Below are positions 1 through 63,601 of a stretch of 64,000 bases of DNA, piece after piece. This DNA comes from Eledone cirrhosa. Taxonomy: Eukaryota. Made by a program: the position numbers and the translations under genes. The DNA is taken from contig OZ024749.1 in NCBI GenBank assembly GCA_964016885.1, positions 10,602,001-10,666,000 on the forward strand, written 5' to 3'. How positions within the stretch are numbered: position 1 is the first letter of the stretch; every line of letters begins with the position of its first letter. The notes beneath the pieces were generated by a model. The model was given only the letters and a program-made list of their open reading frames with translations. It made no database searches and was not told where the DNA came from.

Positions 1-841
1 TCACTGACACTTCTAATATCAATTTTCTCTGAACATCTACTGCATATAAAGTTTTCACTACCTGTTAGTTTGCCTACTATCCCACTACACCTCTTGTGTA
101 CCCAAGATCTGTATTGGGTACATTCTATAGAGTTTATGCCAACTCCTTTTCTAAATATCGAGCATGGCCATTTCCATGATGGAATCAGATTCTTGTCCTC
201 TTTCCTACTTATCAACACTTTAGTCTTTGCTAGGTCCATTCTCAGTCCTCTTGATTCCAACTTCTGTTTCCATAGCCAGAATTGATTCTCTAGCTCTTCT
301 ACAGATTCTGCTATAAGTACCAGATCGTCAGCATAGAGAAGTTCCCATGGGCAGCCAATCTGAAGCTCCTCTGTTATGGCTTAGAGAACTATAATGAACA
401 AGAGTGGGCTGAGGACCAAACCCTGATGAACTCCTACTTGTATCTGGAATTCCTCACGAGACTCCATTCCTACTCTTACTTTACTGACAGCTCCTCTGTA
501 CATAGCTTGCACTGTCCTCACAAGCCATTCCTCTACACCTAGTTTCCTTAGGGACCACAAGATGACAGATCGGGGTACTCTATCAAAGGCCTTCTCTAGG
601 TCAACAAAAGTTAAATATAGTGGATTATTCTTCTCTAAGAACTTCTCTTGTAGTTGTCTCACTAAGAAGAGGGCTGTTGTACTTTTCCCAGGCACAAAAC
701 CAAACTGCATCTCATCTAATTTGACTCTTTCTCTAATTAGTTGTGCTAGCACTCTTTCTGTCATTTTCATAACCTGATCCATCAGTTTTATGCTCCTATA
801 ATTGCTCCTCTCCAGAGCATCCCCTTTACCTTTGTAGCAAT
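1..841 (-). mobile_element. RTE-clade LINE reverse transcriptase fragment (degenerate)
   Basis: NYRSIKLM, QFGF, FVDLEKAFDRVPR, GVHQG..LSPLLF, then PWELLYADDL near 325-350 after an in-frame stop. Confidence 0.92.
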
Positions 842-1700
842 TTACAAGACCTGGACACAATGCAGCAATGGATCACAGACTGGCAACTGAAGCTGGCTGT
901 GGACAAGTGTACCACCATGCATTTTGGGAGGAAAAATCCAGCGTCCACATACTCCCTCCACAACACTGATATCAAGAAGTCCTCTTGTGAACGTGACCTG
1001 GGCTTTACTGTCAGCAGCAATTTGCGTTGGACAAAGCATGTCTCTAAGATTGTCAAGAAGGCTGAGGGTGTCTTGGCATCACTCAGCAAGACCTTTGTTA
1101 GCCGCTCTCCAGCCATCTATTTGAAGCTGTATACAGCTATGGTACGACCACACTTGGAATTCGCATCATCAGTCTGGAACCCCTATCTTGCTCAGAACAT
1201 TTACCTCCTGGAAACTGTTCAGAGACGTGCAACCAAGCGCATACCCTCCATCAGACACCTACCATACTCTGAACGCCTTGCTTCCCTGGGCATGGATTCA
1301 ATGAAGCTCCAACGTCTGGCAATGGACTCAGTAAATACCCACAAAGTTATTAACCATCTCGCCAACAACAACTCTGAGCACCTTTTTGATCTCCATGTGT
1401 CTAACACACGTGGACATGCCTACAAAATCAGAAAACAGCACAGCTCCCATGACTTTCGGAAACATTTTTTCACGCTCAGAGTTGCTGAAGCATGGAACAA
1501 ACATTTGCGTCAGTTGTTAGCTGCTGAGACACTGCATCCTTTAAAACCTCCATGGAACAAACTGCCTGCATCAGTTGTTAGCTGCTGAGATATTGCATCC
1601 TTTAAAACCCTCATGCTTCACAAAATTCACCAAAACTACACCTGATGTACCCCTTCCAGACACATGCACACGTGTATATCATGACTCATGCACTGTTCAT
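842..1700 (+). mobile_element. CR1/L2-type LINE ORF2 C-terminus and 3' end
   Basis: W..DWQL.L...KC, ERDLG, LYTAMVRPHLEFASSVWNP, LETVQRRATK, TRGH..K, FF..RV...WN motifs. There is a local duplication at about 1490-1610. Confidence 0.9.
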
Positions 1701-1709
1701 TATTTTAGC

Positions 1710-3118
1710 CTCAAGCTAGGCATGAAAATCGGATTGCCTTCCAAACACACCCTGCTCTTCCAGCTTGATGTACGCCCAAAGCTATGTGCTGCAGTTTCCT
1801 TAAACCTCAACTCAGCACAATATGAAAGCTTCAGCCTATGTGATGATGGGCAGATATGGAAGTTTATTAAGGCTGGTGAAACATAGAAAAGAGATTCCAG
1901 CTGGTCTTAAAACACTGTATCAACAACTGGCAATAAAAAAACTGGAAAAACTCTGCGAAACTAAATGAGAACAACTTGCCATCCCCTGCACATCGTCATA
2001 GACTGAAATCAAGGTATAAATTGTTGTCCTTAAATGCATGTAGTCTATGCAATAAGATACATCTTTTTTGATTCCTATGTCAAAAGTATCAATCCTGACT
2101 TCATTAGTCACGGAAACATGGGCTCATTCCTTACTCTGTGATGGGGATTTCAGCTTAGCTAGCTACAACTTGTTTCGTAAAGACCGCATTAATCATTGTG
2201 GTGGTGGTGTAATGGTCTACGTTTGTTCAAACTTTTCAGCAATTCCTTGCGTTGATTTGAACCAATCACAGCAAGAAGTATTTTCTGCGATATACGTATG
2301 ACCGTGTCAACACTGCTACTTGGAGTTGTTTACCGCCCCCTATATTACCATCAGGACACTCAGCTTTGTGATATCCTCAGAGCTGCTGCCAGAGAAACAG
2401 CCACTTATGTTTTTATTGCAGGGGACTTCAATCACCCTGAAATTTACTGGGAAACCTTTTGTTGAGCTAGTGCTGGACTCGAACTGGTCCCAAGTAGTTA
2501 CCTCCCCAACAAGAGGTGACAACACTTTGGATCTACTCTTCACCACTACTCCTGAAACGGTTATTAGTGTTACTACTGAGGAACCTTTAGGTGACTCTGA
2601 TCATGCTATGATCATTGCCAATCTGTCCCTCATGGGCAGTAACAAAAACCACAACCATCTCCAAACTGCTCACTTTGACCGGAATAAAGCGGACTGGAAC
2701 TGTTAAAGCACTGAGTTGCAACGTCCAAACTGGCTTGAGTTTTACGACCCTGGAGATGTCAACACTGTACTCCAGAACATCCTGAACTCAATATGGACAG
2801 CATGTGCAGCATCGGTGCCATGTAAGCAAAAAAAACATCCCAAAAGTGCAATTTGGGAGACTGCAGCAGTCCATCTTGCCAGGAAAGAACGTTGTAACGC
2901 TGAATGTGAGTACAGACTGCATAAATCAGCTATCAATAGGATAAAGCGAAATAAATCATCCAACCATTTCAAGCAGGTGACAAAAAAGGCAGTGCTTGAA
3001 TTTGAACAGCGCATAGCAACCAACCCTGACAGTAAGGTGTTCTGGAAATATGTACACTCAAAGCAGATGCCTCACTCTCCAGTTGGTCCTCTTTGCAATC
3101 CCCACACAAGCCAGATTG
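1710..3118 (+). mobile_element. CR1/L2-type LINE 5' portion with an APE endonuclease domain (frameshifted, 3'-truncated)
   Basis: LLSLNACSLCNK, VTETW, FRKDR..GGGV, GDFN, PTRGDNTLDLLF, LGDSDH, NPDSKVFWKYV and VGPL motifs across shifting frames. Confidence 0.85.
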
Positions 3119-3159
3119 CTTCATTCTGCCTTGTTTGCTGTTGTAGAGAAAAGTTATGC
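3117..3159 (-). CDS. ECM29: Probable 5' part of ECM29 exon 6 (K-HNFSLQQQTRQNEA), apparently truncated by LINE sequence
   Basis: Good acceptor tatttttcttaaag|G and correct phase (AA+G = Lys). The peptide loosely resembles human PYG-YVLNESQSRQN. It then runs into antisense CR1-like sequence with a TGA at 3072-3074. Confidence 0.55.
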
Positions 3160-3410
3160 CTTTAAGAAAAATACACAAATATAGATAAAAATGTATCCCA
3201 AGTGTGTCAACTGATAAAGAAGGGAGATGTAGTCATATTAAACTACTAATTTTTAATGTAATGTAATAGTGCTGTTTTGTAGTTTTTAAAAAATGTGTTG
3301 CTAATACAGTTTTATGCAGTATAGGACGTGTATTCTTAACATCCTATACTGCATAAAACTGTATTAAATACACATCTGTCGTGTTGTTGTGTATCAGTAT
3401 GGTTTTCGAG

Positions 3411-6400
3411 ATACTTGTAAGGTAACAACACATCCATTACATAGTCCTAGACATACTTGTAAGGTAACAACAACACATCCATTATTTAGTCCTAGACTTA
3501 CTTGTAAGGTAACAACGTACATTACATAGTCCTAGACATACTTGTAAAGTAACAACAACACATCCATTACACAGTCCTAGACATACTTGTAAGGTAATAA
3601 CAACACATCCATTACATAGTCCTATAAATACTTGTAAAGTAACAACAACACATCCATTACATAGTCCTAGACTTACTTGTAAGGTAACAACAACACATCC
3701 ATTACACAGTCCTAGACATACTTGTAAGGTAATAACAACACATCCATTACATAGTCCTATAAATACTTGTAAAGTAACAACAACACATCCATTACATAGT
3801 CCTAGACTTACTTGTAAGGTAACAACAACACATCCATTACACAGTCCTAGACATACTTGTAAGGTAATAACAACACATCCATTACATAGTCCTAGACTTA
3901 CTTGTAAGGTAACAACAACACATCCATTACACAGTCCTAGACATACTTGTAAAGTAACAACAACACATCCATTACATAGTCCTAGACTTACTTGTAAGGT
4001 AACAACAACACATCCATTACACAGTCCTAGACATACTTGTAAGGTAATAACAACACATCCATTACATAGTCCTAGACTTACTTGTAAGGTAACAACAACA
4101 CATCCATTACACAGTCCTAGACATACTTGTAAGGTAATAACAACACATCCATTACACAGTCCTAGACATACTTGTAAGGTAATAACAACACATCCATTAC
4201 AGAGTCCTAGACATACTTGTAAGGTAACAACAACACATCCATTATTAAGTCCTAGACTTACTTGTAAGGTAACAACACATCCATTACATAGTCCTAGACT
4301 TACTTGTAAGGTAACAACAACACATCCATTACACAGTCCTAGACATACTTGTAAAGTAACAACAACACATCCATTACACAGTCCTAGACATTACTTGTAA
4401 GGTAACAACAACACATCCATTACATAGTCCTAGACTTACTTGTAAGGTAACAACAACACATCCATTACATAGTCCTAGACTTACTTGTAAGGTAACAACA
4501 CATCCATTACACAGTCCTAGACTTACTTGTAAGGTAACAACAACACATCCATTACACAGTCCTAGACATACTTGTAAGGTAACAACAACACATCCATTAC
4601 ATAGTCCTAGACTTACTTGTAAGGTAACAACAACACATCCATTACATAGTCCTAGACTTACTTGTAAGGTAACAACAACACATCCATTACATAGTCCTAG
4701 ACTTACTTGTAAGGTAACAACAACACATCCATTACACAGTCCTAGACATACTTGTAAGGTAACAACAACACATCCATTACACAGTCCTAGACATACTTGT
4801 AAAGTAACAACAACACATCCATTACACAGTCTTAGACATACTTGTAAGGTAACAACACATCCATTACATAGTCCTAGACTTACTTGTAAGGTAATAACAA
4901 CACATCCATTAGGTAGTCCTAGACTTACTTGTAAGGTAACAACAACACATCCATTACATAGTCCTAGACTTACTTGTAAGGTAACAACACATCCATTACA
5001 CAGTCCTAGACTTACTTGTAAGGTAACAACAACACATCCATTACACAGTCCTAGACATACTTGTAAGGTAATAACAACACATCCATTACATAGTCCTAGA
5101 CTTACTTGTAAGGTAATAACAACACATCCATTACATAGTCCTAGACTTACTTGTAAGGTAATAACAACACATCCATTACACAGTCCTAGACTTACTTGTA
5201 AGGTAACAACAACACATCCATTACATAGTCCTAGACTTACTTGTAAGGTAATAACAACACATCCATTACACAGTCCTAGACTTACTTGTAAGGTAACAAC
5301 ACATCCATTACATAGTCCTAGACTTACTTGTAAGGTAACAACAACACATCCATTACACAGTCTTAGACATACTTGTAAGGTAATAACAACACATCCATTA
5401 CATAGTCCTAGACTTACTTGTAAGGTAACAACAACACATCCATTACACAGTCCTAGACATACTTGTAAGGTAATAACAACACATCCATTACACAGTCCTA
5501 GACTTACTTGTAAGGTAACAACACATCCATTACATAGTCCTAGACTTACTTGTAAGGTAACAACAACACATCCATTATTAAGTCCTAGACTTACTTGTAA
5601 GGTAACAACACATCCATTACATAGTCCTAGACTTACTTGTAAGGTAACAACAACACATCCATTACATAGTCCTAGACTTACTTGTAAGGTAACAACAACA
5701 CATCCATTACATAGTCCTAGACTTACTTGTAAGGTAATAACAACACATCCATTACATAGTCCTAGACTTACTTGTAAGGTAACAACAACACATCCATTAC
5801 ACAGTCCTAGACATACTTGTAAGGTAACAACAACACATCCATTACATAGTCCTAGACTTACTTGTAAGGTAACAACACATCCATTACATAGTCCTAGACT
5901 TACTTGTAAGGTAACAACACATCCATTACATAGTCCTAGACATACTTGTAAGGTAACAACAACACATCCATTACATAGTCCTAGACATACTTGTAAGGTA
6001 ACAACAACACATCCATTACATAGTCCTAGACTTACTTGTAAGGTAACAACACATCCATTACATAGTCCTAGACTTACTTGTAAGGTAACAACAACACATC
6101 CATTACATAGTCCTAGACTTACTTGTAAGGTAACAACACATCCATTACACAGTCCTAGACTTACTTGTAAGGTAACAACAACACATCCATTACACAGTCC
6201 TAGACATACTTGTAAGGCAACAACAACACATCCATTACATAGTCCTAGACTTACTTGTAAGGTAACAACAACACATCCATTACACAGTCCTAGACATACT
6301 TGTAAGGTAACAACAACACATCCATTACATAGTCCTAGACTTACTTGTAAGGTAACAACAACACATCCATTACACAGTCCTAGACATACTTGTAAAGTAA

Positions 6401-9400
6401 CAACAACACATCCATTACATAGTCCTAGACTTACTTGTAAGGTAACAACAACACATCCATTACACAGTCCTAGACATATTTGTAAGGTAACAACAACACA
6501 TCCATTACACAGTCCTAGACATACTTGTAAGGTAACAACAACACATCCATTACACAGTCCTAGACTTACTTGTAAGGTAACAACAACACATCCATTACAT
6601 AGTCCTAGACTTACTTGTAAGGTAACAACAACACATCCATTACACAGTCCTAGACATACTTGTAAGGTAACAACAACACATCCATTACACAGTCCTAGAC
6701 TTACTTGTAAGGTAACAACAACACATCCATTACATAGTCCTAGACTTACTTGTAAGGTAACAACACATCCATTACATAGTCCTAGACTTACTTGTAAAGT
6801 AACAACACATCCATTACATAGTCCTAGACTTACTTGTAAGGTAACAACAACACATCCATTACACAGTCCTAGACTTACTTGTAAGGTAACAACAACACAT
6901 CCATTACACAGTCCTAGACTTACTTGTAAAGTAACAACACATCCATTACATAGTCCTAGACTTACTTGTAAGGTAACAACAACACATCCATTACATAGTC
7001 CTAGACTTACTTGTAAGGTAACAACAACACATCCATTACACAGTCCTAGACATACCTGTAAGGTAACAACAACACATCCATTACATAGTCCTAGACTTAC
7101 TTGTAAGGTAACAACAACACATCCATTACATAGTCCTAGACTTACTTGTAAGGTAACAACAACACATCCATTACATAGTCCTAGACTTACTTGTAAGGTA
7201 ACAACAACACATCCATTACACAGTCCTAGACATACCTGTAAGGTAACAACAACACATCCATTACATAGTCCTAGACTTACTTGTAAGGTAACAACAACAC
7301 ATCCATTACACAGTCCTAGACTTACTTGTAAGGTAACAACACATCCATTACACAGTCCTAGACTTACTTGTAAGGTAACAACAACACATCCATTACATAG
7401 TCCTAGACTTACTTGTAAGGTAACAACACATCCATTACACAGTCCTAGACTTACTTGTAAGGTAACAACAACACATCCATTACACAGTCCTAGACATATT
7501 TGTAAGGTAACAACAACACATCCATTACACAGTCCTAGACTTACTTGTAAGGTAACAACACATCCATTACATAGTCCTAGACTTACTTGTAAGGTAACAA
7601 CACATCCATTACATAGTCCTAGACATACTTGTAAGGTAACAACAACACATCCATTACATAGTCCTAGACTTACTTGTAAGGTAACAACAACACATCCATT
7701 ACACAGTCCTAGACTTACTTGTAAGGTAACAACAACACATCCATTACACAGTCCTAGACATACCTGTAAGGTAACAACAACACATCCATTACATAGTCCT
7801 AGACTTACTTGTAAGGTAACAACACATCCATTACACAGTCCTAGACTTACTTGTAAGGTAACAACAACACATCCATTACATAGTCCTAGACTTACTTGTA
7901 AGGTAACAACACATCCATTACACAGTCCTAGACATACTTGTAAGGTAACAACAACACATCCATTACATAGTCCTAGACTTACTTGTAAGGTAATAACAAC
8001 ACATCCATTACATAGTCCTAGACATACTTGTAAGGTAACAACAACACATCCATTACACAGTCCTAGACATACTTGTAAGGTAACAACAACACATCCATTA
8101 CATAGTCCTAGACTTACTTGTAAGGTAATAACAACACATCCATTACATAGTCCTAGACTTACTTGTAAGGTAACAACAACACATCCATTACATAGTCCTA
8201 GACTTACTTCTAAGGTAACAACAACACATCCATTACATAGTCCTAGACTTACTTGTAAGGTAACAACAACACATCCATTACATAGTCCTAGACTTACTTG
8301 TAAGGTAACAACAACACATCCATTACACAGTCCTAGACTTACTTGTAAGGTAACAACAACACATCCATTACACAGTCCTAGACTTACTTGTAAGGTAACA
8401 ACAACACATCCATTACACAGTCCTAGACTTACTTGTAAGGTAACAACAACACATCCATTACACAGTCCTAGACTTACTTGTAAGGTAACAACACATCCAT
8501 TACACAGTCCTAGACTTACTTGTAAGGTAACAACAACACATCCATTACATAGTCCTAGACTTACTTGTAAGGTAACAACAACACATCCATTACATAGTCC
8601 TAGACATACTTGTAAGGTAACAACAACACATCCATTACACAGTCCTAGACTTACTTGTAAGGTAACAACAACACATCCATTACATAGTCCTAGACATACT
8701 TGTAAGGTAACAACAACACATCCATTACACAGTCCTAGACATACTTGTAAGGTAACAACAACACATCCATTACATAGTCCTAGACTTACTTGTAAGGTAA
8801 CAACAACACATCCATTACATAGTCCTAGACTTACTTGTAAGGTAACAACAACACATCCATTACACAGTCCTAGACATACTTGTAAGGTAACAACAACACA
8901 TCCATTACATAGTCCTAGACATACTTGTAAGGTAACAACAACACATCCATTACACAGTCCTAGACTTACTTGTAAGGTAACAACAACACATCCATTACAC
9001 AGTCCTAGACTTACTTGTAAGGTAACAACAACACATCCATTACATAGTCCTAGACATACTTGTAAGGTAATAACAACACATCCATTACATAGTCCTAGAC
9101 TTACTTGTAAGGTAACAACAACACATCCATTACACAGTCCTAGACATACTTGTAAGGTAACAACAACACATCCATTACATAGTCCTAGACATACTTGTAA
9201 GGTAACAACAACACATCCATTACACAGTCCTAGACTTACTTGTAAGGTAACAACAACACATCCATTACATAGTCCTAGACATACTTGTAAGGTAACAACA
9301 ACACATCCATTACATAGTCCTAGACTTACTTGTAAGGTAACAACAACACATCCATTACACAGTCCTAGACATACTTGTAAGGTAACAACAACACATCCAT

Positions 9401-12400
9401 TACATAGTCCTAGACATACTTGTAAGGTAATAACAACACATCCATTACATAGTCCTAGACTTACTTGTAAGGTAACAACAACACATCCATTACACAGTCC
9501 TAGACATACTTGTAAGGTAACAACAACACATCCATTACATAGTCCTAGACATACTTGTAAGGTAACAACAACACATCCATTACACAGTCCTAGACTTACT
9601 TGTAAGGTAACAACAACACATCCATTACACAGTCCTAGACTTACTTGTAAGGTAACAACAACACATCCATTACACAGTCCTAGACATACTTGTAAGGTAA
9701 CAACAACACATCCATTACATAGTCCTAGACATACTTGTAAGGTAACAACAACACATCCATTACACAGTCCTAGACATACTTGTAAGGTAACAACAACACA
9801 TCCATTACATAGTCCTAGACTTACTTGTAAGGTAACAACAACACATCCATTACATAGTCCTAGACTTACTTGTAAGGTAACAACAACACATCCATTACAT
9901 AGTCCTAGACATACTTGTAAGGTAATAACAACACATCCATTACATAGTCCTAGACTTACTTGTAAGGTAACAACAACACATCCATTACACAGTCCTAGAC
10001 ATACTTGTAAGGTAACAACAACACATCCATTACATAGTCCTAGACTTACTTGTAAGGTAACAACAACACATCCATTACACAGTCCTAGACATACTTGTAA
10101 GGTAACAACAACACATCCATTACATAGTCCTAGACTTACTTGTAAGGTAACAACAACACATCCATTACATAGTCCTAGACTTACTTGTAAGGTAACAACA
10201 ACACATCCATTACATAGTCCTAGACATACTTGTAAGGTAACAACAACACATCCATTACATAGTCCTAGACTTACTTGTAAGGTAACAACAACACATCCAT
10301 TACATAGTCCTAGACATACTTGTAAGGTAATAACAACACATCCATTACATAGTCCTAGACTTACTTGTAAGGTAACAACAACACATCCATTACATAGTCC
10401 TAGACTTACTTGTAAGGTAACAACAACACATCCATTACACAGTCCTAGACATACTTGTAAGGTAACAACAACACATCCATTACATAGTCCTAGACATACT
10501 TGTAAGGTAATAACAACACATCCATTACATAGTCCTAGACTTACTTGTAAGGTAACAACAACACATCCATTACACAGTCCTAGACTTACTTGTAAGGTAA
10601 CAACAACACATCCATTACATAGTCCTAGACTTACTTGTAAGGTAACAACACATCCATTACACAGTCCTAGACTTACTTGTAAGGTAACAACACATCCATT
10701 ACACAGTCCTAGACTTACTTGTAAGGTAACAACAACACATCCATTACACAGTCCTAGACATACCTGTAAGGTAACAACAACACATCCATTACATAGTCCT
10801 AGACTTACTTGTAAGGTAACAACAACACATCCATTACATAGTCCTAGACTTACTTGTAAGGTAATAACAACACATCCATTACACAGTCCTAGACTTACTT
10901 GTAAGGTAACAACACATCCATTACACAGTCCTAGACTTACTTGTAAGGTAACAACAACACATCCATTACACAGTCCTAGACATACTTGTAAGGTAATAAC
11001 AACACATCCATTACATAGTCCTAGACTTACTTGTAAGGTAACAACAACACATCCATTACACAGTCCTAGACTTACTTGTAAGGTAACAACAACACATCCA
11101 TTACACAGTCCTAGACTTACTTGTAAGGTAACAACAACACATCCATTACACAGTCCTAGACTTACTTGTAAGGTAACAACACATCCATTACACAGTCCTA
11201 GACTTACTTGTAAGGTAACAACAACACATCCATTACACAGTCCTAGACTTACTTGTAAGGTAACAACACATCCATTACACAGTCCTAGACTTACTTGTAA
11301 GGTAACAACAACACATCCATTACACAGTCCTAGACTTACTTGTAAGGTAACAACACATCCATTACACAGTCCTAGACTTACTTGTAAGGTAACAACACAT
11401 CCATTACACAGTCCTAGACTTACTTGTAAGGTAACAACAACACATCCATTACACAGTCCTAGACATACTTGTAAGGTAACAACAACACATCCATTACACA
11501 GTCCTAGACTTACTTGTAAGGTAACAACACATCCATTACACAGTCCTAGACTTACTTGTAAGGTAACAACAACACATCCATTACACAGTCCTAGACTTAC
11601 TTGTAAGGTAACAACAACACATCCATTACATAGTCCTAGACATACTTGTAAGGTAACAACAACACATCCATTACATAGTCCTAGACTTACTTGTAAGGTA
11701 ATAACACATCCATTACACAGTCCTAGACTTACTTGTAAGGTAACAACAACACATCCATTACATAGTCCTAGACTTACTTGTAAGGTAACAACACATCCAT
11801 TACATAGTCCTAGACTTACTTGTAAGGTAACAACAACACATCCATTACATAGTCCTAGACTTACTTGTAAGGTAACAACAACACATACATTACACAGTCC
11901 TAGACTTACTTGTAAGGTAACAACAACACATCCATTACATAGTCCTAGACTTACTTGTAAGGTAACAACAACACATCCATTACATAGTCCTAGACTTACT
12001 TGTAAGGTAACAACAACACATCCATTACATAGTCCTAGACTTACTTGTAAGGTAACAACAACACATACATTACACAGTCCTAGACTTACTTGTAAGGTAA
12101 CAACAACACATCCATTACATAGTCCTAGACTTACTTGTAAGGTAACAACACATCCATTACATAGTCCTAGACTTACTTGTAAGGTAATAACAACACATCC
12201 ATTACACAGTCCTAGACTTACTTGTAAGGTAACAACAACACATCCATTACATAGTCCTAGACATACTTGTAAGGTAATAACAACACATCCATTACACAGT
12301 CCTAGACTTACTTGTAAGGTAACAACAACACATCCATTACATAGTCCTAGACATACTTGTAAGGTAATAACAACACATCCATTACACAGTCCTAGACTTA

Positions 12401-15400
12401 CTTGTAAGGTAACAACAACACATCCATTACATAGTCCTAGACTTACTTGTAAGGTAACAACAACACATCCATTACATAGTCCTAGACTTACTTGTAAGGT
12501 AACAACAACACATCCATTACACAGTCCTAGACTTACTTGTAAGGTAACAACAACACATCCATTACACAGTCCTAGACATACTTGTAAGGTAACAACAACA
12601 CATCCATTACATAGTCCTAGACTTACTTGTAAGGTAACAACACATCCATTACATAGTCCTAGACTTACTTGTAAGGTAACAACACATCCATTACATAGTC
12701 CTAGACTTACTTGTAAGGTAACAACAACACATCCATTACATAGTCCTAGACTTACTTGTAAGGTAACAACACATCCATTACATAGTCCTAGACTTACTTG
12801 TAAGGTAACAACAACACATCCATTACATAGTCCTAGACTTACTTGTAATGTAACAACAACACATCCATTACATAGTCCTAGACTTACTTGTAAGGTAACA
12901 ACAACACATCCATTACATAGTCCTAGACTTACTTGTAAGGTAACAACAACACATCCATTACATAGTCCTAGACTTACTTGTAAGGTAACAACAACACATC
13001 CATTACACAGTCCTAGACTTACTTGTAAGGTAACAACAACACATCCATTACACAGTCCTAGACATACCTGTAAGGTAACAACAACACATCCATTACATAG
13101 TCCTAGACTTACTTGTAAGGTAACAACAACACATCCATTACATAGTCCTAGACTTACTTGTAAGGTAACAACACATCCATTACACAGTCCTAGACTTACT
13201 TGTAAGGTAACAACAACACATCCATTACATAGTCCTAGACTTACTTGTAAGGTAACAACACATCCATTACATAGTCCTAGACTTACTTGTAAGGTAACAA
13301 CAACACATCCATTACATAGTCCTAGACTTACTTGTAAGGTAACAACAACACATCCATTACATAGTCCTAGACTTACTTGTAAGGTAACAACAACACATCC
13401 ATTACACAGTCCTAGACTTACTTGTAAGGTAACAACAACACATCCATTACATAGTCCTAGACTTACTTGTAAGGTAACAACAACACATCCATTACATAGT
13501 CCTAGACTTACTTGTAAGGTAACAACAACACATCCATTACACAGTCCTAGACATACCTGTAAGGTAACAACAACACATCCATTACATAGTCCTAGACTTA
13601 CTTGTAAGGTAACAACACATCCATTACATAGTCCTAGACTTACTTGTAAGGTAACAACAACACATCCATTACATAGTCCTAGACTTACTTGTAAGGTAAC
13701 AACAACACATCCATTACACAGTCCTAGACATACCTGTAAGGTAACAACAACACATCCATTACATAGTCCTAGACTTACTTGTAAGGTAACAACAACACAT
13801 CCATTACATAGTCCTAGACTTACTTGTAAGGTAACAACAACACATCCATTACACAGTCCTAGACATACCTGTAAGGTAACAACAACACATCCATTACACA
13901 GTCCTAGACATACCTGTAAGGTAACAACAACACATCCATTACATAGTCCTAGACTTACTTGTAAGGTAACAACAACACATCCATTACATAGTCCTAGACT
14001 TACTTGTAAGGTAACAACAACACATCCATTACATAGTCCTAGACTTACTTGTAAGGTAACAACACATCCATTACACAGTCCTAGACTTACTTGTAAGGTA
14101 ATAACAACACATCCATTACATAGTCCTAGACTTACTTGTAAGGTAACAACAACACATCCATTACATAGTCCTAGACATACTTGTAAGGTAACAACACATC
14201 CATTACATAGTCCTAGACATACTTGTAAGGTAATAACAACACATCCATTACACAGTCCTAGACTTACTTGTAAGGTAATAACAACACATCCATTACATAG
14301 TCCTAGACATACTTGTAAGGTAACAACAACACATCCATTACACAGTCCTAGACATACTTGTAAGGTAACAACAACACATCCATTACATAGTCCTAGACTT
14401 ACTTGTAAGGTAATAACAACACATCCATTACATAGTCCTAGACTTACTTGTAAGGTAACAACAACACATCCATTACATAGTCCTAGACTTACTTGTAAGG
14501 TAACAACAACACATCCATTACACAGTCCTAGACATACTTGTAAGGTAACAACAACACATCCATTACACAGTCCTAGACTTACTTGTAAGGTAATAACAAC
14601 ACATCCATTACACAGTCCTAGACATACTTGTAAGGTAACAACAACACATCCATTACACAGTCCTAGACATACTTGTAAGGTAACAACAACACATCCATTA
14701 CATAGTCCTAGACTTACTTGTAAGGTAATAACAACACATCCATTACATAGTCCTAGACTTACTTGTAAGGTAACAACAACACATCCATTACACAGTCCTA
14801 GACATACTTGTAAGGTAACAACAACACATCCATTACATAGTCCTAGACTTACTTGTAAGGTAATAACAACACATCCATTACATAGTCCTAGACTTACTTG
14901 TAAGGTAACAACAACACATCCATTACACAGTCCTAGACATACTTGTAAGGTAACAACAACACATCCATTACATAGTCCTAGACTTACTTGTAAGGTAATA
15001 ACAACACATCCATTACATAGTCCTAGACTTACTTGTAAGGTAACAACAACACATCCATTACACAGTCCTAGACATACTTGTAAGGTAACAACAACACATC
15101 CATTACATAGTCCTAGACATACTTGTAAGGTAACAACACATCCATTACATAGTCCTAGACATACTTGTAAGGTAACAACAACACATCCATTACATAGTCC
15201 TAGACATACTTGTAAGGTAACAACAACACATCCATTACACAGTCCTAGACATACTTGTAAGGTAACAACAACACATCCATTACATAGTCCTAGACTTACT
15301 TGTAAGGTAACAACAACACATCCATTACACAGTCCTAGACTTACTTGTAAGGTAACAACAACACATCCATTACACAGTCCTAGACATACTTGTAAGGTAA

Positions 15401-18320
15401 CAACAACACATCCATTACATAGTCCTAGACATACTTGTAAGGTAACAACAACACATCCATTACACAGTCCTAGACTTACTTGTAAGGTAACAACAACACA
15501 TCCATTACATAGTCCTAGACTTACTTGTAAGGTAACAACAACACATCCATTACATAGTCCTAGACTTACTTGTAAGGTAACAACAACACATCCATTACAC
15601 AGTCCTAGACATACTTGTAAGGTAACAACAACACATCCATTACATAGTCCTAGACTTACTTGTAAGGTAACAACAACACATCCATTACATAGTCCTAGAC
15701 TTACTTGTAAGGTAACAACAACACATCCATTACACAGTCCTAGACATACTTGTAAGGTAACAACAACACATCCATTACATAGTCCTAGACTTACTTGTAA
15801 GGTAACAACAACACATCCATTACATAGTCCTAGACTTACTTGTAAGGTAACAACAACACATCCATTACATAGTCCTAGACTTACTTGTAAGGTAACAACA
15901 ACACATCCATTACACAGTCCTAGACATACTTGTAAGGTAACAACAACACATCCATTACATAGTCCTAGACTTACTTGTAAGGTAACAACAACACATCCAT
16001 TACACAGTCCTAGACTTACTTGTAAGGTAACAACAACACATCCATTACACAGTCCTAGACTTACTTGTAAAGTAACAACAACACATCCATTACATAGTCC
16101 TAGACTTACTTGTAAGGTAACAACACATCCATTACATAGTCCTAGACTTACTTGTAAGGTAACAACAACACATCCATTACACAGTCCTAGACTTACTTGT
16201 AAGGTAACAACAACACATCCATTACACAGTCCTAGACTTACTTGTAAGGTAACAACAACACATCCATTACATAGTCCTAGACTTACTTGTAAGGTAACAA
16301 CAACACATCCATTACATAGTCCTAGACTTACTTGTAAGGTAACAACAACACATCCATTACACAGTCCTAGACATACTTGTAAGGTAACAACAACACATCC
16401 ATTACACAGTCCTAGACTTACTTGTAAAGTAACAACAACACATCCATTACATAGTCCTAGACTTACTTGTAAGGTAACAACACATCCATTACATAGTCCT
16501 AGACTTACTTGTAAGGTAACAACAACACATCCATTACACAGTCCTAGACTTACTTGTAAGGTAACAACAACACATCCATTACACAGTCCTAGACTTACTT
16601 GTAAGGTAACAACAACACATCCATTACATAGTCCTAGACTTACTTGTAAGGTAACAACAACACATCCATTACATAGTCCTAGACTTACTTGTAAGGTAAC
16701 AACAACACATCCATTACACAGTCCTAGACATACTTGTAAGGTAACAACAACACATCCATTACACAGTCCTAGACATACTTGTAAGGTAATAACAACACAT
16801 CCATTACACAGTCCTAGACTTACTTGTAAGGTAACAACAACACATCCATTACACAGTCCTAGACTTACTTGTAAGGTAACAACAACACATCCATTACACA
16901 GTCCTAGACTTACTTGTAAGGTAACAACAACACATCCATTACTCAGTCCTAGACTTACTTGTAAGGTAACAACAACACATCCATTACACAGTCCTAGACT
17001 TACTTGTAAGGTAACAACAACACATCCATTACACAGTCCTAGACTTACTTGTAAGGTAACAACAACACATCCATTACATAGTCCTAGACTTACTTGTAAG
17101 GTAACAACAACACATCCATTACACAGTCCTAGACTTACTTGTAAAGTAACAACAACACATCCATTACATAGTCCTAGACTTACTTGTAAGGTAACAACAC
17201 ATCCATTACATAGTCCTAGACTTACTTGTAAGGTAACAACAACACATCCATTACACAGTCCTAGACTTACTTGTAAGGTAACAACAACACATCCATTACA
17301 CAGTCCTAGACTTACTTGTAAGGTAACAACAACACATCCATTACATAGTCCTAGACTTACTTGTAAGGTAACAACACATCCATTACATAGTCCTAGACAT
17401 ACTTGTAAGGTAACAACACATCCATTACATAGTCCTAGACATACTTGTAAGGTAATAACAACACATCCATTACATAGTCCTAGACTTACTTGTAAGGTAA
17501 CAACACATCCATTACATAGTCCTAGACATACTTGTAAGGTAATAACAACACATCCATTACACAGTCCTAGACTTACTTGTAAGGTAACAACACATCCATT
17601 ACATAGTCCTAGACATACTTGTAAGGTAACAACACATCCATTACATAGTCCTAGACATACTTGTAAGGTAATAACAACACATCCATTACATAGTCCTAGA
17701 CTTACTTGTAAGGTAACAACAACACATCCATTACACAGTCCTAGACTTACTTGTAAGGTAACAACACATCCATTACATAGTCCTAGACTTACTTGTAAGG
17801 TAACAACAACACATCCATTACATAGTCCTAGACTTACTTGTAAGGTAACAACAACACATCCATTACATAGTCCTAGACTTACTTGTAAGGTAACAACAAC
17901 ACATCCATTACACAGTCCTAGACTTACTTGTAAGGTAACAACAACACATCCATTACACAGTCCTAGACTTACTTGTAAGGTAACAACACATCCATTACAC
18001 AGTCCTAGACTTACTTGTAAAGTAATAACAACACATCCATTACATAGTCCTAGACATACTTGTAAGGTAACAACAACACATCCATTACATAGTCCTAGAC
18101 TTACTTGTAAGGTAACAACAACACATCCATTACACAGTCCTAGACTTACTTGTAAGGTAACAACAACACATCCATTACATAGTCCTAGACTTACTTGTAA
18201 GGTAACAACAACACATCCATTACATAGTCCTAGACTTACTTGTAAGGTAACAACAACACATCCATTACATAGTCCTAGACTTACTTGTAAGGTAACAACA
18301 ACACATCCATTAGGTAGTCC
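3411..18320. repeat. 45/42-bp tandem satellite, roughly 330 copies, derived from the ECM29 exon 5 end and splice donor
   Basis: Unit on + strand is ACTTACTTGTAAGGTAACAACAACACATCCATTACAYAGTCCTAG. The copy number is estimated from span divided by unit length. Confidence 0.99.
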
Positions 18321-18434
18321 AAAAATAGTTGGCTGACATTTGGTCTTTCTGACAACTGATACGTTTCTTCAAGTTTGGAAGGACTGCTGGGAGTTTTCAC
18401 ATACTGTAGAGCTGGCACCAACAGTTGTAATAGG
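18285..18434 (-). CDS. ECM29: ECM29 coding exon 5 (SLLQLLVPALQYVKTPSSPSKLEETYQLSERPNVSQLFLDYLMDVLLLPY)
   Basis: tctctcccag|C CTA TTA ... CCT TAC AA|GTAAGT, 150 nt, phase 2/2. Matches ECM29 SLMHLLIPTL...LLLDFMLDVLLMPY. Its 3' end is the founding unit of the large satellite. Confidence 0.93.
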
Positions 18435-18584
18435 CTGGGAGAGAAAGGAAAAGAAATCTTATTAAGGATATGTAGAGCAGGGAATGAATTATTGAAACGT
18501 TGGATATAATGCTTGGCTTTCAGGTAACTGTTCTGGATTTCTGTTGTCTGTGTTGAAGTTCTATTGAGGTCAAGATAGGAGCAG

Positions 18585-21500
18585 GACCCATGACTATTTA
18601 CAGGGTCTCTGTGACTAGTGAGAGGGAGGGAGGGACAGAACCCATGACTATTTACAGGGTCTCTGTGACTAGTGAGAGGGAGGGAGGGACAGAACCCATG
18701 ACTATTTACAGGGTCTCTGTGACTAGTGAGAGGGAGGGAGGGACAGAACCCATGACTATTTACAGGGTCTCTGTGACTAGTGAGAGGGAGGGACAGAACC
18801 CATGACTATTTACAGAGACTGTGACTAGTGAGAGGGAGGGACAGAACCCATGACTATTTACAGAGACTGTGACTAGTGAGAGGGAGGGACAGAACCCATG
18901 ACTATTTACAGGGTCTCTGTGACTAGTGAGAGGGAGGGACAGAACCCATGACTATTTACAGAGACTCTGTGACTAGTGAGAGGGAGGGACAGAACCCATG
19001 ACTATTTACAGAGACTCTGTGACTAGTGAGAGGGAGGGACAGAACCCATGACTATTTACAGAGACTCTGTGACTAGTGAGAGGGAGGGACAGAACCCATG
19101 ACTATTTACAGGGTCTCTGTGACTAGTGAGAGGGAGGGACAGAACCCATGACTATTTACAGAGACTCTGTGACTAGTGAGAGGGAGGGACAGAACCCATG
19201 ACTATTTACAGGGTCTCTGTGACTAGTGAGAGGGAGGGACAGAACCCATGACTATTTACAGGGTCTCTGTGACTAGTGAGAGGGAGGGACAGAACCCATG
19301 ACTATTTACAGGGTCTCTGTGACTAGTGAGAGGGAGGGACAGAACCCATGACTATTTACAGAGACTGTGACTAGTGAGAGGGAGGGACAGAACCCATGAC
19401 TATTTACAGGGTCTCTGTGACTAGTGAGAGGGAGGGACAGAACCCATGACTATTTACAGAGACTGTGACTAGTGAGAGGGAGGGACAGAACCCATGACTA
19501 TTTACAGGGTCTCTGTGACTAGTGAGAGGGAGGGACAGAACCCATGACTATTTACAGAGACTGTGACTAGTGAGAGGGAGGGACAGAACCCATGACTATT
19601 TACAGAGACTGTGACTAGTGAGAGGGAGGGACAGAACCCATGACTATTTACAGGGTCTCTGTGACTAGTGAGAGGGAGGGACAGAACCCATGACTATTTA
19701 CAGAGACTCTGTGACTAGTGAGAGGGAGGGACAGAACCCATGACTATTTACAGAGACTCTGTGACTAGTGAGAGGGAGGGACAGAACCCATGACTATTTA
19801 CAGAGATTGTGACTAGTGAGAGGGAGGGACAGAACCCATGACTATTTACAGGGTCTCTGTGACTAGTGAGAGGGAGGGACAGAACCCATGACTATTTACA
19901 GGGTCTCTGTGACTAGTGAGAGGGAGGGACAGAACCCATGACTATTTACAGGGTCTCTGTGACTAGTGAGAGGGAGGGACAGAACCCATGACTATTTACA
20001 GAGACTGTGACTAGTGAGAGGGAGGGACAGAACCCATGACTATTTACAGGGTCTCTGTGACTAGTGAGAGGGAGGGACAGAACCCATGACTATTTACAGA
20101 GACTGTGACTAGTGAGAGGGAGGGACAGAACCCATGACTATTTACAGAGACTCTGTGACTAGTGAGAGGGAGGGACAGAACCCATGACTATTTACAGGGT
20201 CTCTGTGACTAGTGAGAGGGAGGGACAGAACCCATGACTATTTACAGAGACTGTGACTAGTGAGAGGGAGGGACAGAACCCATGACTATTTACAGGGGCT
20301 CTGTGACTAGTGAGAGGGAGGGACAGAACCCATGACTATTTACAGGGGCTCTGTGACTAGTGAGAGGGAGGGACAGAACCCATGACTATTTACAGAGACT
20401 GTGACTAGTGAGAGGGAGGGACAGAACCCATGACTATTTACAGAGACTGTGACTAGTGAGAGGGAGGGACAGAACCCATGACTATTTACAGGGTCTCTGT
20501 GACTAGTGAGAGGGAGGGACAGAACCCATGACTATTTACAGAGACTGTGACTAGTGAGAGGGAGGGACAGAACCCATGACTATTTACAGAGACTGTGACT
20601 AGTGAGAGGGAGGGACAGAACCCATGACTATTTACAGGGTCTCTGTGACTAGTGAGAGGGAGGGACAGAACCCATGACTATTTACAGAGACTGTGACTAG
20701 TGAGAGGGAGGGACAGAACCCATGACTATTTACAGGGTCTCTGTGACTAGTGAGAGGGAGGGACAGAACCCATGACTATTTACAGGGGCTCTGTGACTAG
20801 TGAGAGGGAGGGACAGAACCCATGACTATTTACAGAGACTGTGACTAGTGAGAGGGAGGGACAGAACCCATGACTATTTACAGGGTCTCTGTGACTAGTG
20901 AGAGGGAGGGACAGAACCCATGACTATTTACAGGGTCTCTGTGACTAGTGAGAGGGAGGGACAGAACCCATGACTATTTACAGGGTCTCTGTGACTAGTG
21001 AGAGGGAGGGACAGAACCCATGACTATTTACAGAGACTGTGACTAGTGAGAGGGAGGGACAGAACCCATGACTATTTACAGAGACTGTGACTAGTGAGAG
21101 GGAGGGACAGAACCCATGACTATTTACAGAGACTGTGACTAGTGAGAGGGAGGGACAGAACCCATGACTATTTACAGGGTCTCTGTGACTAGTGAGAGGG
21201 AGGGACAGAACCCATGACTATTTACAGGGGCTCTGTGACTAGTGAGAGGGAGGGACAGAACCCATGACTATTTACAGGGGCTCTGTGACTAGTGAGAGGG
21301 AGGGACAGAACCCATGACTATTTACAGGGTCTCTGTGACTAGTGAGAGGGAGGGACAGAACCCATGACTATTTACAGAGACTGTGACTAGTGAGAGGGAG
21401 GGACAGAACCCATGACTATTTACAGAGACTGTGACTAGTGAGAGGGAGGGACAGAACCCATGACTATTTACAGGGTCTCTGTGACTAGTGAGAGGGAGGG

Positions 21501-23875
21501 ACAGAACCCATGACTATTTACAGAGACTGTGACTAGTGAGAGGGAGGGACAGAACCCATGACTATTTACAGAGACTGTGACTAGTGAGAGGGAGGGACAG
21601 AACCCATGACTATTTACAGAGACTGTGACTAGTGAGAGGGAGGGACAGAACCCATGACTATTTACAGAGACTGTGACTAGTGAGAGGGAGGGACAGAACC
21701 CATGACTATTTACAGGGGCTCTGTGACTAGTGAGAGGGAGGGACAGAACCCATGACTATTTACAGGGTCTCTGTGACTAGTGAGAGGGAGGGACAGAACC
21801 CATGACTATTTACAGAGACTGTGACTAGTGAGAGGGAGGGACAGAACCCATGACTATTTACAGAGACTGTGACTAGTGAGAGGGAGGGACAGAACCCATG
21901 ACTATTTACAGAGACTGTGACTAGTGAGAGGGAGGGACAGAACCCATGACTATTTACAGAGACTGTGACTAGTGAGAGGGAGGGACAGAACCCATGACTA
22001 TTTACAGGGGCTCTGTGACTAGTGAGAGGGAGGGACAGAACCCATGACTATTTACAGAGACTGTGACTAGTGAGAGGGAGGGACAGAACCCATGACTATT
22101 TACAGAGACTGTGACTAGTGAGAGGGAGGGACAGAACCCATGACTATTTACAGGGTCTCTGTGACTAGTGAGAGGGAGGGACAGAACCCATGACTATTTA
22201 CAGAGACTGTGACTAGTGAGAGGGAGGGACAGAACCCATGACTATTTACAGAGACTGTGACTAGTGAGAGGGAGGGACAGAACCCATGACTATTTACAGG
22301 GTCTCTGTGACTAGTGAGAGGGAGGGACAGAACCCATGACTATTTACAGGGGCTCTGTGACTAGTGAGAGGGAGGGACAGAACCCATGACTATTTACAGG
22401 GGCTCTGTGACTAGTGAGAGGGAGGGACAGAACCCATGACTATTTACAGGGTCTCTGTGACTAGTGAGAGGGAGGGACAGAACCCATGACTATTTACAGG
22501 GTCTCTGTGACTAGTGAGAGGGAGGGACAGAACCCATGACTATTTACAGAGACTGTGACTAGTGAGAGGGAGGGACAGAACCCATGACTATTTACAGGGT
22601 CTCTGTGACTAGTGAGAGGGAGGGACAGAACCCATGACTATTTACAGGGGCTCTGTGACTAGTGAGAGGGAGGGACAGAACCCATGACTATTTACAGGGG
22701 CTCTGTGACTAGTGAGAGGGAGGGACAGAACCCATGACTATTTACAGGGTCTCTGTGACTAGTGAGAGGGAGGGACAGAACCCATGACTATTTACAGGGT
22801 CTCTGTGACTAGTGAGAGGGAGGGACAGAACCCATGACTATTTACAGAGACTGTGACTAGTGAGAGGGAGGGACAGAACCCATGACTATTTACAGAGACT
22901 GTGACTAGTGAGAGGGAGGGACAGAACCCATGACTATTTACAGGGTCTCTGTGACTAGTGAGAGGGAGGGACAGAACCCATGACTATTTACAGAGACTGT
23001 GACTAGTGAGAGGGAGGGACAGAACCCATGACTATTTACAGGGTCTCTGTGACTAGTGAGAGGGAGGGACAGAACCCATGACTATTTACAGGGTCTCTGT
23101 GACTAGTGAGAGGGAGGGACAGAACCCATGACTATTTACAGAGACTGTGACTAGTGAGAGGGAGGGACAGAACCCATGACTATTTACAGAGACTGTGACT
23201 AGTGAGAGGGAGGGACAGAACCCATGACTATTTACAGAGACTGTGACTAGTGAGAGGGAGGGACAGAACCCATGACTATTTACAGGGTCTCTGTGACTAG
23301 TGAGAGGGAGGGACAGAACCCATGACTATTTACAGGGTCTCTGTGACTAGTGAGAGGGATGGACAGAACCCATGACTATTTACAGAGACTGTGACTAGTG
23401 AGAGGGAGGGACAGAACCCATGACTATTTACAGGGTCTCTGTGACTAGTGAGAGGGAGGGACAGAACCCATGACTATTTACAGAGACTGTGACTAGTGAG
23501 ATGGAGGGACAGAACCCATGACTATTTACAGGGTCTCTGTGACTAGTAAGAGGGAGGGACAGAACCCATGACTATTTACAGAGACTGTGACTAGTGAGAG
23601 GGAGGGACAGAACCCATGACTATTTACAGGGTCTCTGTGACTAGTGAGAGGGAGGGACAGAACCCATGACTATTTACAGAGACTGTGACTAGTGAGAGGG
23701 AGGGACAGAACCCATGACTATTTACAGGGTCTCTGTGACTAGTGAGAGGGAGGGACAGAACCCATGACTATTTACAGAGACTGTGACTAGTGAGAGGGAG
23801 GGACAGAACCCATGACTATTTACAGGGTCTCTGTGACTAGTGAGAGGGAGGGACAGAACCCATGACTATTTACAT
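18585..23875. repeat. 50/48-bp tandem satellite, roughly 105-110 copies, in ECM29 intron 4
   Basis: Unit GAACCCATGACTATTTACAG(GGTCT/AGACT/AGA/GGGCT)CTGTGACTAGTGAGAGGGAGGGACA. The first three units are 54 bp. Confidence 0.99.
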
Positions 23876-24425
23876 GGGCTCTGTGGGAGGGAACGAGAGG
23901 AAGTGGATACATGGCTGTGAATGTCTGCAAGAGAGGGGACTCCATTGCTGGTACCTGTGTCAATTGGTTAAACTGGGAAGTTGGGACGGACCTCCCCAAA
24001 ATAATTAACATTTTAATGTAAAATAGAATAGAATGGATCTTCACCAGTTTCAAGGATAAACATTCCAGTTGTTTTATCAATGGAACAACCTGCTTTTGAC
24101 AATGTGCAAGTGGCTGAGTATTCCACAGATATGTGTACCCTTAATGTAATTCTCAGAGAGATTCGGCAAAGATTTGACTCACTATTTTTCCAGCGGAATA
24201 GACTGGAGAAATGTGCAGTAAAGTGTCTTACTCAAGGACACTACGCACCATTGGTAATTGAACTCATTACCATACTATTGTGGAACATTCTAACCATTAA
24301 ACAACATGCTATCACACTAGGCCACACACCTTTACACGCAGCAAGTTTGATATATTTGATAAAGTTGATCTTGAATATGACCTTTGATCAGTTGAGTGGG
24401 GTGAGAAATGGTTTGCTACCTTTAA

Positions 24426-26166: not shown

Positions 26167-26285
26167 CTGTCTTGCTGTGGCTGTGGTCGTCCTTCAATGC
26201 AATTTAACAGGATTGGTATAAATTCTGCTTGTTGACTAGACTCTAATCGTGGGTAACCTTTCTTTATGTAAAGCATTGTAAAATT
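26167..26285 (-). CDS. ECM29: ECM29 coding exon 4 (NFTMLYIKKGYPRLESSQQAEFIPILLNCIEGRPQPQQD)
   Basis: ctttcag|AAT TTT ACA ... GAC AG|GTATGT, 119 nt. Matches ECM29 NFTIIYVKMGYPRL...EGKPQPQQDS. Confidence 0.95.
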
Positions 26286-56732: not shown

Positions 56733-56849
56733 GGTTATAAATGGTGATGCTGAAGGATCTTGGTATTGTGTAAGTAAGGACTGTACTGGTAGCTTGACTT
56801 TGGGACGAGATTTTAAGCGTTTGTTGATATGAACCAACAGTTCCATCAC
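56733..56849 (-). CDS. ECM29: ECM29 coding exon 3 ([39 protein letters not shown])
   Basis: tttag|GTG ATG GAA ... ACC|GTAAAT, 117 nt, phase 0/0. Matches ECM29 [22 protein letters not shown]. Confidence 0.95.
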
Positions 56850-59522: not shown

Positions 59523-59653
59523 CTTTTTCCTGACATCTTCTTGTGGACTAGAAAGTCTTGACAAAACAGGAGCGAGAAACTTTCCAAGGGCAACTTCAAC
59601 ATCCGCATCAGTATCTGCAGAAGCTATACACAAAAATACACGCTCCAAGCGCA
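59523..59653 (-). CDS. ECM29: ECM29 coding exon 2 (RLERVFLCIASADTDADVEVALGKFLAPVLSRLSSPQEDVRKK)
   Basis: ttttag| ... AAG|GTATGT, 131 nt. Recognisably similar to the ECM29 N-terminus [43 protein letters not shown] (human sequence recalled from memory). Confidence 0.95.
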
Positions 59654-63579: not shown

Positions 63580-63601
63580 TTAAATCGTCTTCGCCTGACA
63601 T
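63580..63601 (-). CDS. ECM29: ECM29/ECPAS first coding exon (MSGEDDL + 1 nt)
   Basis: ATG TCA GGC GAA GAC GAT TTA A|GTAAGT. The 22 nt phase-1 end joins the next exon in frame (A+TG CGC TTG GAG = M-R-L-E). A polypyrimidine/AG acceptor near 63647 suggests an upstream non-coding exon. Confidence 0.75.

Follow-up and report, generated by a model that had tools for sequence, protein, structure and literature searches.

The ECM29 Locus

The stretch of DNA analysed here (the window) comprises 64,000 nucleotides (nt) of the 3.0-Gb genome of the octopod Eledone cirrhosa (G000:C9:10602001-10666000). It carries on its minus strand the first five coding exons of the gene for ECM29 and, in intron 5 of this gene, a 15-kb minisatellite array, whose unit repeats the end of exon 5 together with the adjoining 5' splice donor (Table 1). 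A gene model was obtained by mapping the ECM29 protein of Octopus vulgaris onto the window and 200 kb beyond it; the model has 50 exons, all with GT-AG splice sites, and 5,487 nt coding for 1,828 amino acids, with no internal stop and with 81.7% identity to the O. vulgaris protein. A Pfam search of the genome yielded four matches, all four at this locus, and the unique part of exon 5 with its flank matched the genome once. ECM29 is an intact single-copy gene; a pseudogene or a second gene copy was ruled out by the complete 50-exon model and the single genomic locus.

The assignment of the repeated exon end to exon 5 of ECM29, made in the original prediction from the sequence alone, was confirmed by the Pfam family ECM29_N and by the numbering of the gene model, although the first homologue search gave no match for exon 5; a search of PDB returned nothing relevant and a search of representatives only unnamed homologues. 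The same prediction had placed the next acceptor at 3160 and deduced a small intron expanded about 60-fold, which had to be corrected. The AG at 3161-3160 and the short exon 6 that would follow it have no homology to octopod ECM29 and are skipped in a spliced transcript contig (see below). Exon 6 is located at G000:C9:10599429, 2.6 kb beyond the window start, as indicated by the transcript contig and by the ECM29 proteins of O. vulgaris and Argonauta, in which exon 5 is directly continuous with this exon; these are also the closest proteins to exon 6 (86% and 82% identity, respectively). The length of intron 5 is thus 20,855 nt; with the array set aside, 5,982 nt remain, corresponding to an expansion of about 3.5-fold. 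The part of this remainder within the window contains LINE-like (long interspersed element) pieces, as judged by eye.

Table 1. Features of the ECM29 locus and of two further donor-spanning arrays. Plain numbers are positions in the window; positions beginning with G000 are genomic.
Feature	Position	Strand	Basis or remark
45-bp minisatellite array	3412..18320	-	Tandem Repeats Finder (TRF): period 45, 334.9 copies, 95% matches
Authentic 5' splice donor, first of 333	18279..18287	-	Cut between 18285 and 18284; X2 transcript contig
ECM29 coding exon 5 (150 nt), last 36 nt being the first repeat unit	18285..18434	-	Pfam ECM29_N, tblastn to O. vulgaris ECM29, gene model, transcript contig
Only interior unit with the exact two-base variant of the exon (Tyr-Leu, not Tyr/Cys-Val codons)	4906..4919	-	Unit census
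Non-array remainder of intron 5 inside the window	1..3411	-	Extends a further 2,570 nt outside the window, as far as exon 6
ECM29 first coding exon (ATG to donor, 22 nt)	63580..63601	-	Gene model
ECM29 exon 2	59523..59653	-	Pfam genome search, gene model
ECM29 exon 3	56733..56849	-	Pfam genome search, gene model
ECM29 exon 4	26167..26285	-	Pfam, gene model; joined to exon 5 in X2 contig
Unrelated 50-bp minisatellite, 107.6 copies, intron 4	18582..23885	-	TRF; ends 148 nt before the exon 5 acceptor; no splice site touched
Second donor-spanning array, intron 6	G000:C9:10596695-10599244 and 10591760-10594013		Unit of 41 bp, made up of the exon 6 end and the intron 6 start
Aldehyde dehydrogenase exon with 82-bp donor-spanning array	L298, G000:C18:34850504	-	41 exonic and 41 intronic nt

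Structure of the Array and its Donors

The extent and copy number of the array agreed with the about 330 copies originally proposed. Each unit corresponds to the last 36 nt of exon 5, the frame terminus of which is LDYLMDVLLLPY, followed by 9 nt from the start of intron 5; a split of 35 and 10 nt is equivalent, since one boundary G fits either side. This composition supports tandem amplification across the exon-intron junction as the source of the array, as had been suggested. A census gave 334 units: 281 were 45 nt long, 51 were 42 nt long and had one GTT triplet fewer, and two measured 46 and 40 nt. Variant units are interleaved, and no repeated block of more than eight units was present.

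There are 333 GT donors across the array, 232 of them with the authentic 9-mer CAA/GTAAGT, 87 with CAA/GTATGT, nine with CAG/GTATGT and five with other sequences; the pre-mRNA would therefore present hundreds of near-identical sites of U1 type, as foreseen. In the frame of exon 5 a stop occurs within every unit (334/334), at codon 1 in 234 and at codon 3 in 100 of them, and therefore only the first donor provides an open frame, a point in which the original prediction was right. When donors were ranked against the 47 other donors of ECM29, the nine CAG/GTATGT copies surpassed 38 of these and the authentic donor 31, so that, as far as sequence scores indicate, later donors match or exceed the first one in strength. 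Predicted folding assigned donors 1-5 an unpaired probability of 0.39-0.44, i.e., equal accessibility, and the array RNA folded worse than 200 out of 200 shuffled sequences, as expected of an unstructured RNA; concealment of the later donors by RNA structure was ruled out on these grounds. With donors equal in strength and accessibility, position, rather than sequence or structure, would have to decide the choice of donor.

Other roles of the repeated sequence were considered. Recursive splicing (ratchet points) found no basis in the commonest unit, whose three AG never directly precede GT and whose sole YAG is without a pyrimidine tract; CAG/GT does occur in nine variant units, but after a GT-rich rather than a pyrimidine-rich stretch. 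Long open frames cross the array (3412-18284), one of 4,636 codons in sense and one of 4,657 codons in antisense orientation. They are likely a chance by-product of a 45-nt unit with 3-nt insertions and deletions: the commonest units contain no ATG in the open sense frame, and the array stretch is spliced out of the transcript. An exonised coding tandem repeat was likewise not indicated, with the exon frame stopped at codon 1 or 3 in all units and the array absent from the spliced contig.

Confinement to one Locus and Assembled Size

A 32-nt pattern of the unit had 162 exact matches in the whole genome and the same 162 within the window. A satellite dispersed over unrelated loci, which would have made the match to the exon secondary, was thereby ruled out for exact copies, which are confined to the ECM29 locus. 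Exon 5 was contained in four sequencing runs of one study. Three of these (X1, X3 and X4) represent one sample, perhaps the assembled one; they are DNA-like, cover the intron and were examined as short-read contigs. The commonest 31-mer words of the unit exceeded the single-copy flank in depth by factors of 124, 108 and 439 in X1, X3 and X4, respectively (the last ratio resting on a shaky flank depth of 2.35), compared with a ratio of 143 predicted from the assembly. The far end of the array joined to unique flank was present in each of the three runs. The array is real at about its assembled size.

Transcript Evidence

The fourth run, X2, is of unrecorded kind and was read as RNA because its contig is spliced. 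This contig of 5,644 nt, about the full coding length of ECM29, has a depth of 24, covers 18285-18437 and joins exons 4, 5 and 6 by way of donor 1: on one side, the match stops at 18285 and is followed by the initial 30 nt of exon 6; on the other, it is preceded by the end of exon 4. The locus is thus transcribed. Contigs were compared with the window between 18235 and 18581, which holds donors 1 and 2 only; among those listed over this stretch, none had a joint or a loose end at donor 2 and none joined a later donor to exon 6, although contigs drop rare forms. A 75-nt array contig in X2 had a depth of 5.27 which, spread over about 143 copies, amounts to 0.15% of the mRNA depth per copy. Selection of mRNA alone could explain this low depth; minor use of later donors, with the products removed by nonsense-mediated decay, may also occur.

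The X2 transcript contig and one DNA contig from X4 each differ from the assembly at one position within 18285-18437, which could reflect an allele of exon 5. Exon 5 itself forms an island of about 260 non-repeat bases between two unrelated arrays of together 20 kb, yet it is included in the transcript.

Minisatellites in the Rest of the Gene

The donor of exon 6 is spanned by an array as well. It consists of about 62 and 55 copies in two blocks, with 113 donor copies, of which 112 are identical in the 9-mer; its unit is not a multiple of 3. The blocks are separated by a 2.7-kb insertion (L005:1996-4720) with direct terminal repeats of 554 nt that are 98.4% alike, an apparent target duplication of 4 nt and no long reading frame. 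The insertion resembles a non-autonomous long terminal repeat (LTR) element; the intron 6 array must be at least as old as this insertion.

Over the whole gene (235 kb, G000:C9:10430852-10665601), 57 minisatellite clusters cover 34% of the sequence, at least 12 of them exceeding 2 kb. Copies of an array occur in the intron at two of the 49 donors and at none of the 49 acceptors, and 55 of the 57 clusters span no donor; a cluster drawn by TRF across exon 48 consists of two arrays, one on each side of the exon. Random placement, with arrays collapsed to one unit, predicted 0.62 donor-spanning arrays, with probabilities of 0.13 for two or more and of 0.47 for one or more. Since the first array had been picked for spanning a donor, the second is unsurprising. 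Arrays are nearer to splice sites than expected from uniform placement (median distance 444 versus 1,020 nt; none of 1,000 simulations was as low), which only raises the chance expectation of donor overlap. Several ECM29 arrays of 46-48 bp share a motif that, as seen by eye, is present also in an interspersed SINE-like (short interspersed element) repeat. A decayed frame of a Tc1/mariner-like transposase was recognised by eye in intron 3 (window 26480-27510).

Donor Duplication Elsewhere in the Genome

For comparison, 298 exon contexts of myosin, kinase, kinesin, DEAD and aldehyde dehydrogenase genes were sampled, i.e., 304 of 383 Pfam matches of the five families minus six with less than 300 nt of flank; long single-exon matches, recent duplicates and matches not retrieved were left out. 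Splice sites were predicted with a matrix derived from ECM29, not from RNA, and matches at the score of 30 were partly low-complexity noise (5/600 in shuffled pairs). Of 244 donors, 10 had a copy spanning the junction on their downstream side, and of 231 acceptors, 4 had one on their upstream side (Fisher P = 0.18); intron positions 30-60 nt from the junction had a nearby copy in 51 of 639 cases on the donor side and 45 of 571 on the acceptor side. An excess of donors over acceptors was present in the first subset (7/122 versus 1/117) and gone in the second (3/122 versus 3/114). Repeats detected by TRF crossed two of 245 donors and none of 236 acceptors outside ECM29; one of the two is a long array, in an aldehyde dehydrogenase gene (L298), with at least 18.6 copies that are 96% alike and extend beyond the locus examined. 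Minisatellite cover near exons was 24% in ECM29 and 7.6% in the sample (TRF thresholds 60 and 50, respectively). The original prediction had called for a search for other satellites overlapping donors. Further cases were found (intron 6 of ECM29 and the aldehyde dehydrogenase exon), but no excess over background: arrays at donors are a recurrent feature of this genome, with a frequency not above the background rate, and the ECM29 region is rich in repeats.

Old or low-copy duplicates of an exon end with its donor were observed at L172 (C1:322459184), L149 (C17:38574337), L147 (C22:284716), L043 (C6:96149997), L052 and L045. Such duplicates lie in ERK-like, CHK1-like, PKG-like and myosin genes (named by eye from translations), and at L172 a decayed array with a 36-bp unit lies some 250 nt inside the intron.

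History and Possible Exchange between Exon and Array

At one codon, the array units specify Val, as do O. vulgaris and Argonauta, where exon 5 of this genome specifies Leu; the simplest reading of these sequences would be that the array predates a change from Val to Leu in the exon. The single interior unit with the variant of the exon (Table 1) is about 298 copies away from exon 5. In the intron 6 array, one unit identical to the exon is found among units differing from it at 6 of 30 exonic bases. The exon-identical units in both arrays suggest exchange between the exon copy and the array, in one direction or the other.

A more far-reaching notion is that the intron serves as an unselected reservoir exchanging with the coding copy, and that exchange from array to exon, together with decay driven by array length, would make such arrays coding mutators and modifiers of expression at perhaps 1% of the donors of the genome, a figure taken from the two of 245 sampled donors outside ECM29 with a tandem repeat across them. 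This appears rather unlikely; it supposes exchange in that direction and the loss of even a few percent of transcripts to decay, under which conserved coding sequence would be mutated by the arrays and expression tuned by their length.

Discussion

The array is best explained as a donor-spanning intronic minisatellite that has run away in copy number, serves no function in itself and is tolerated by the gene; a probability of roughly three in four would appear appropriate for this reading. A duplication of 45 bp by slippage would by chance have straddled the donor of exon 5, and unequal exchange and replication slippage would then have enlarged it to about 335 copies, in a region shown to be prone to arrays by its 57 clusters and their cover of 34% of the gene. 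The spliceosome takes donor 1 in the transcript contig, presumably as the first donor after the exon 5 acceptor, a first-come mechanism known from human F7. A slip to a later donor adds an immediate stop, and nonsense-mediated decay should clear the product. Tolerance of the array would rest on the success of the first donor and on the immediate stop that follows each of the others. Selection would hold only the first copy in frame, whereas the remaining units could drift, homogenise and occasionally exchange with the exon copy; nearly invisible to selection, the array would grow like its 56 neighbouring clusters.

Several points weigh against this explanation. The array is the longest of the 57 in ECM29. 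Arrays are present at two donors in succession, 5 and 6, and in each the intronic breakpoint is 8-9 nt past the cut, a coincidence expected about once in 100 cases if breakpoints were uniform (a post hoc estimate). The evidence on RNA consists of one run, of contigs that drop rare forms and of a stretch with donors 1 and 2 only, and decay would hide products of later donors. The mechanism of F7 was shown in mammalian cells with 5-9 copies, according to PMC1557585, and the present case is a mollusc with 333 donors. Finally, the array is known from one DNA-like sample.

The original prediction had envisaged functional roles, namely a sink for U1 small nuclear ribonucleoprotein (snRNP), an array for splice-site competition or a dial of expression. 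These ideas found no support in the use of donor 1 by the contig and in the low depth of array words; moreover, the array is one of 57 clusters, and its overlap with the junction occurs at chance rate. The dial, in which splicing to later donors with subsequent nonsense-mediated decay, or slowing by local loading of U1, would let array length tune the output of ECM29, is unlikely. The stop in all 334 units is the layout that a switch by unproductive splicing requires, but an in-frame stop is also the usual outcome for intron sequence; and although nine copies are stronger donors than the authentic one, the X2 contig runs unbroken through the donor 1 junction, with no joint of a later donor listed. 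In humans, 6-16 and CBS use two pseudo-sites besides the authentic site (PMC1557585), and PMC10078293 describes an association between length and splicing for many repeats. Yet with a first-come choice only the nearest few copies would count, and 300 extra ones would add nothing.

Quite improbable, too, is a biased birth at junctions, in which 5' splice sites, through U1-linked pausing of the polymerase or R-loops, would seed duplications ending just past the nucleotides bound by U1, more often than by chance in this lineage. The arrays of donors 5 and 6 agree in their 33-36 exonic and 8-9 intronic nt, but the breakpoints of the intron 6 unit share, by eye, a microhomology of 7 nt, which would be sufficient for ordinary slippage. 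The aldehyde dehydrogenase array is a third clean case, with 41 intronic nt in its unit, however. The asymmetry between donors and acceptors in ECM29 and in the first subset of the genome sample was not replicated in the second, and the rate of duplication at donors was half that of intron DNA at a distance of 30-60 nt. The nearness of arrays to splice sites, which this idea would also account for, is explicable by later transposon insertions that stretched the middles of introns.

An assembly artefact, i.e., a short repeat inflated by the assembler, is very improbable. The DNA-like runs are of one sample, possibly that of the assembly itself, and consist of short-read contigs, and the depth ratios in two runs correspond to 0.75 and 0.87 of the assembled size; against this stand unit words more than 100-fold deeper than single-copy flank, a window without N and interleaved variants, unlike the result of a copied-out collapse. 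A mammalian nucleus contains roughly a million U1 particles, and a sink in which the nascent intron lowers the free pool of U1 and affects other genes is hardly credible: for all its 333 near-consensus donors at a spacing of 45 nt in an RNA predicted to be unstructured, two alleles with few polymerases each would provide at most a few thousand sites, no pile-up of array RNA was seen in one run (X2), and no AATAAA or ATTAAA poly(A) hexamer for U1 to shield is present in the intron 5 array or in the first block of the intron 6 array. Since U1 travels with transcribing polymerase II, as stated in PMC12216098, local loading is plausible, and a local effect on the polymerase through U1 may exist.

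Comparison with Known Systems

The array constitutes a natural stress test of 5' splice-site choice, in which the first of 333 donors of equal or greater predicted strength is used. Should alleles differ in length, the locus would allow a direct measure of the cost of decoy donors in mRNA. For annotation, caution is advisable, as the array yields more than 150 protein-level matches to the exon end. Among open-licence full texts, no report of a donor-spanning intronic minisatellite in a cephalopod was found, and octopus repeat surveys contained nothing specific on such arrays.

Tandem repeats also enlarge introns of working genes in the Y-linked giant introns of Drosophila (PMC6508621 and PMC11207136). 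Those introns are of megabase size, whereas the ECM29 intron has 21 kb and a unit that copies its own junction; and, unlike in the Drosophila genes, nothing suggests a dedicated expression programme.

Closer counterparts are five human genes with donor-reiterating arrays of 5-26 copies, F7, 6-16, CBS, LMNB2 and PDGFA, of which the following is taken from PMC1557585. In the 37-bp VNTR (variable number of tandem repeats) of F7 intron 7, the boundary of exon and intron falls within the first unit, the downstream units repeat the donor identically and the most upstream site is used; the choice of the first donor (IVS7) was demonstrated by mutation (Borensztajn et al. 2006). The ECM29 array has the same features: its first unit reaches 36 nt into exon 5 of an intact gene, the donor is reiterated downstream, mostly in identical form, and splicing takes place mainly at the most upstream donor (in one contig, of a kind that hides minor forms); exact copies of the unit occur at one locus. 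F7 has 5-9 copies with 4 exonic and 33 intronic nt, ECM29 about 335 copies with 36 and 9 nt; competence of the pseudo-sites was shown by mutation in the mammal and is suggested by sequence scores in the octopod. The arrays of 6-16 intron 2, CBS intron 13, and LMNB2 and PDGFA intron 4 comprise 10-26 copies. In LMNB2 and PDGFA the authentic site alone is used, as in the ECM29 transcript contig; 6-16 and CBS use also two pseudo-sites, of which no equivalent was seen in the ECM29 contigs. The copy number in ECM29 is 13-60 times that of the five human arrays (13-30 times that of the four other than F7), and, different from these four, two consecutive donors of one gene are affected. The ECM29 array therefore belongs to the known donor-spanning kind represented by F7, CBS and 6-16, and is notable for its size and for the two consecutive donors; the result for F7, obtained in mammals with fewer than ten copies, is extended to a mollusc with hundreds of copies, and at two donors of the same conserved gene.

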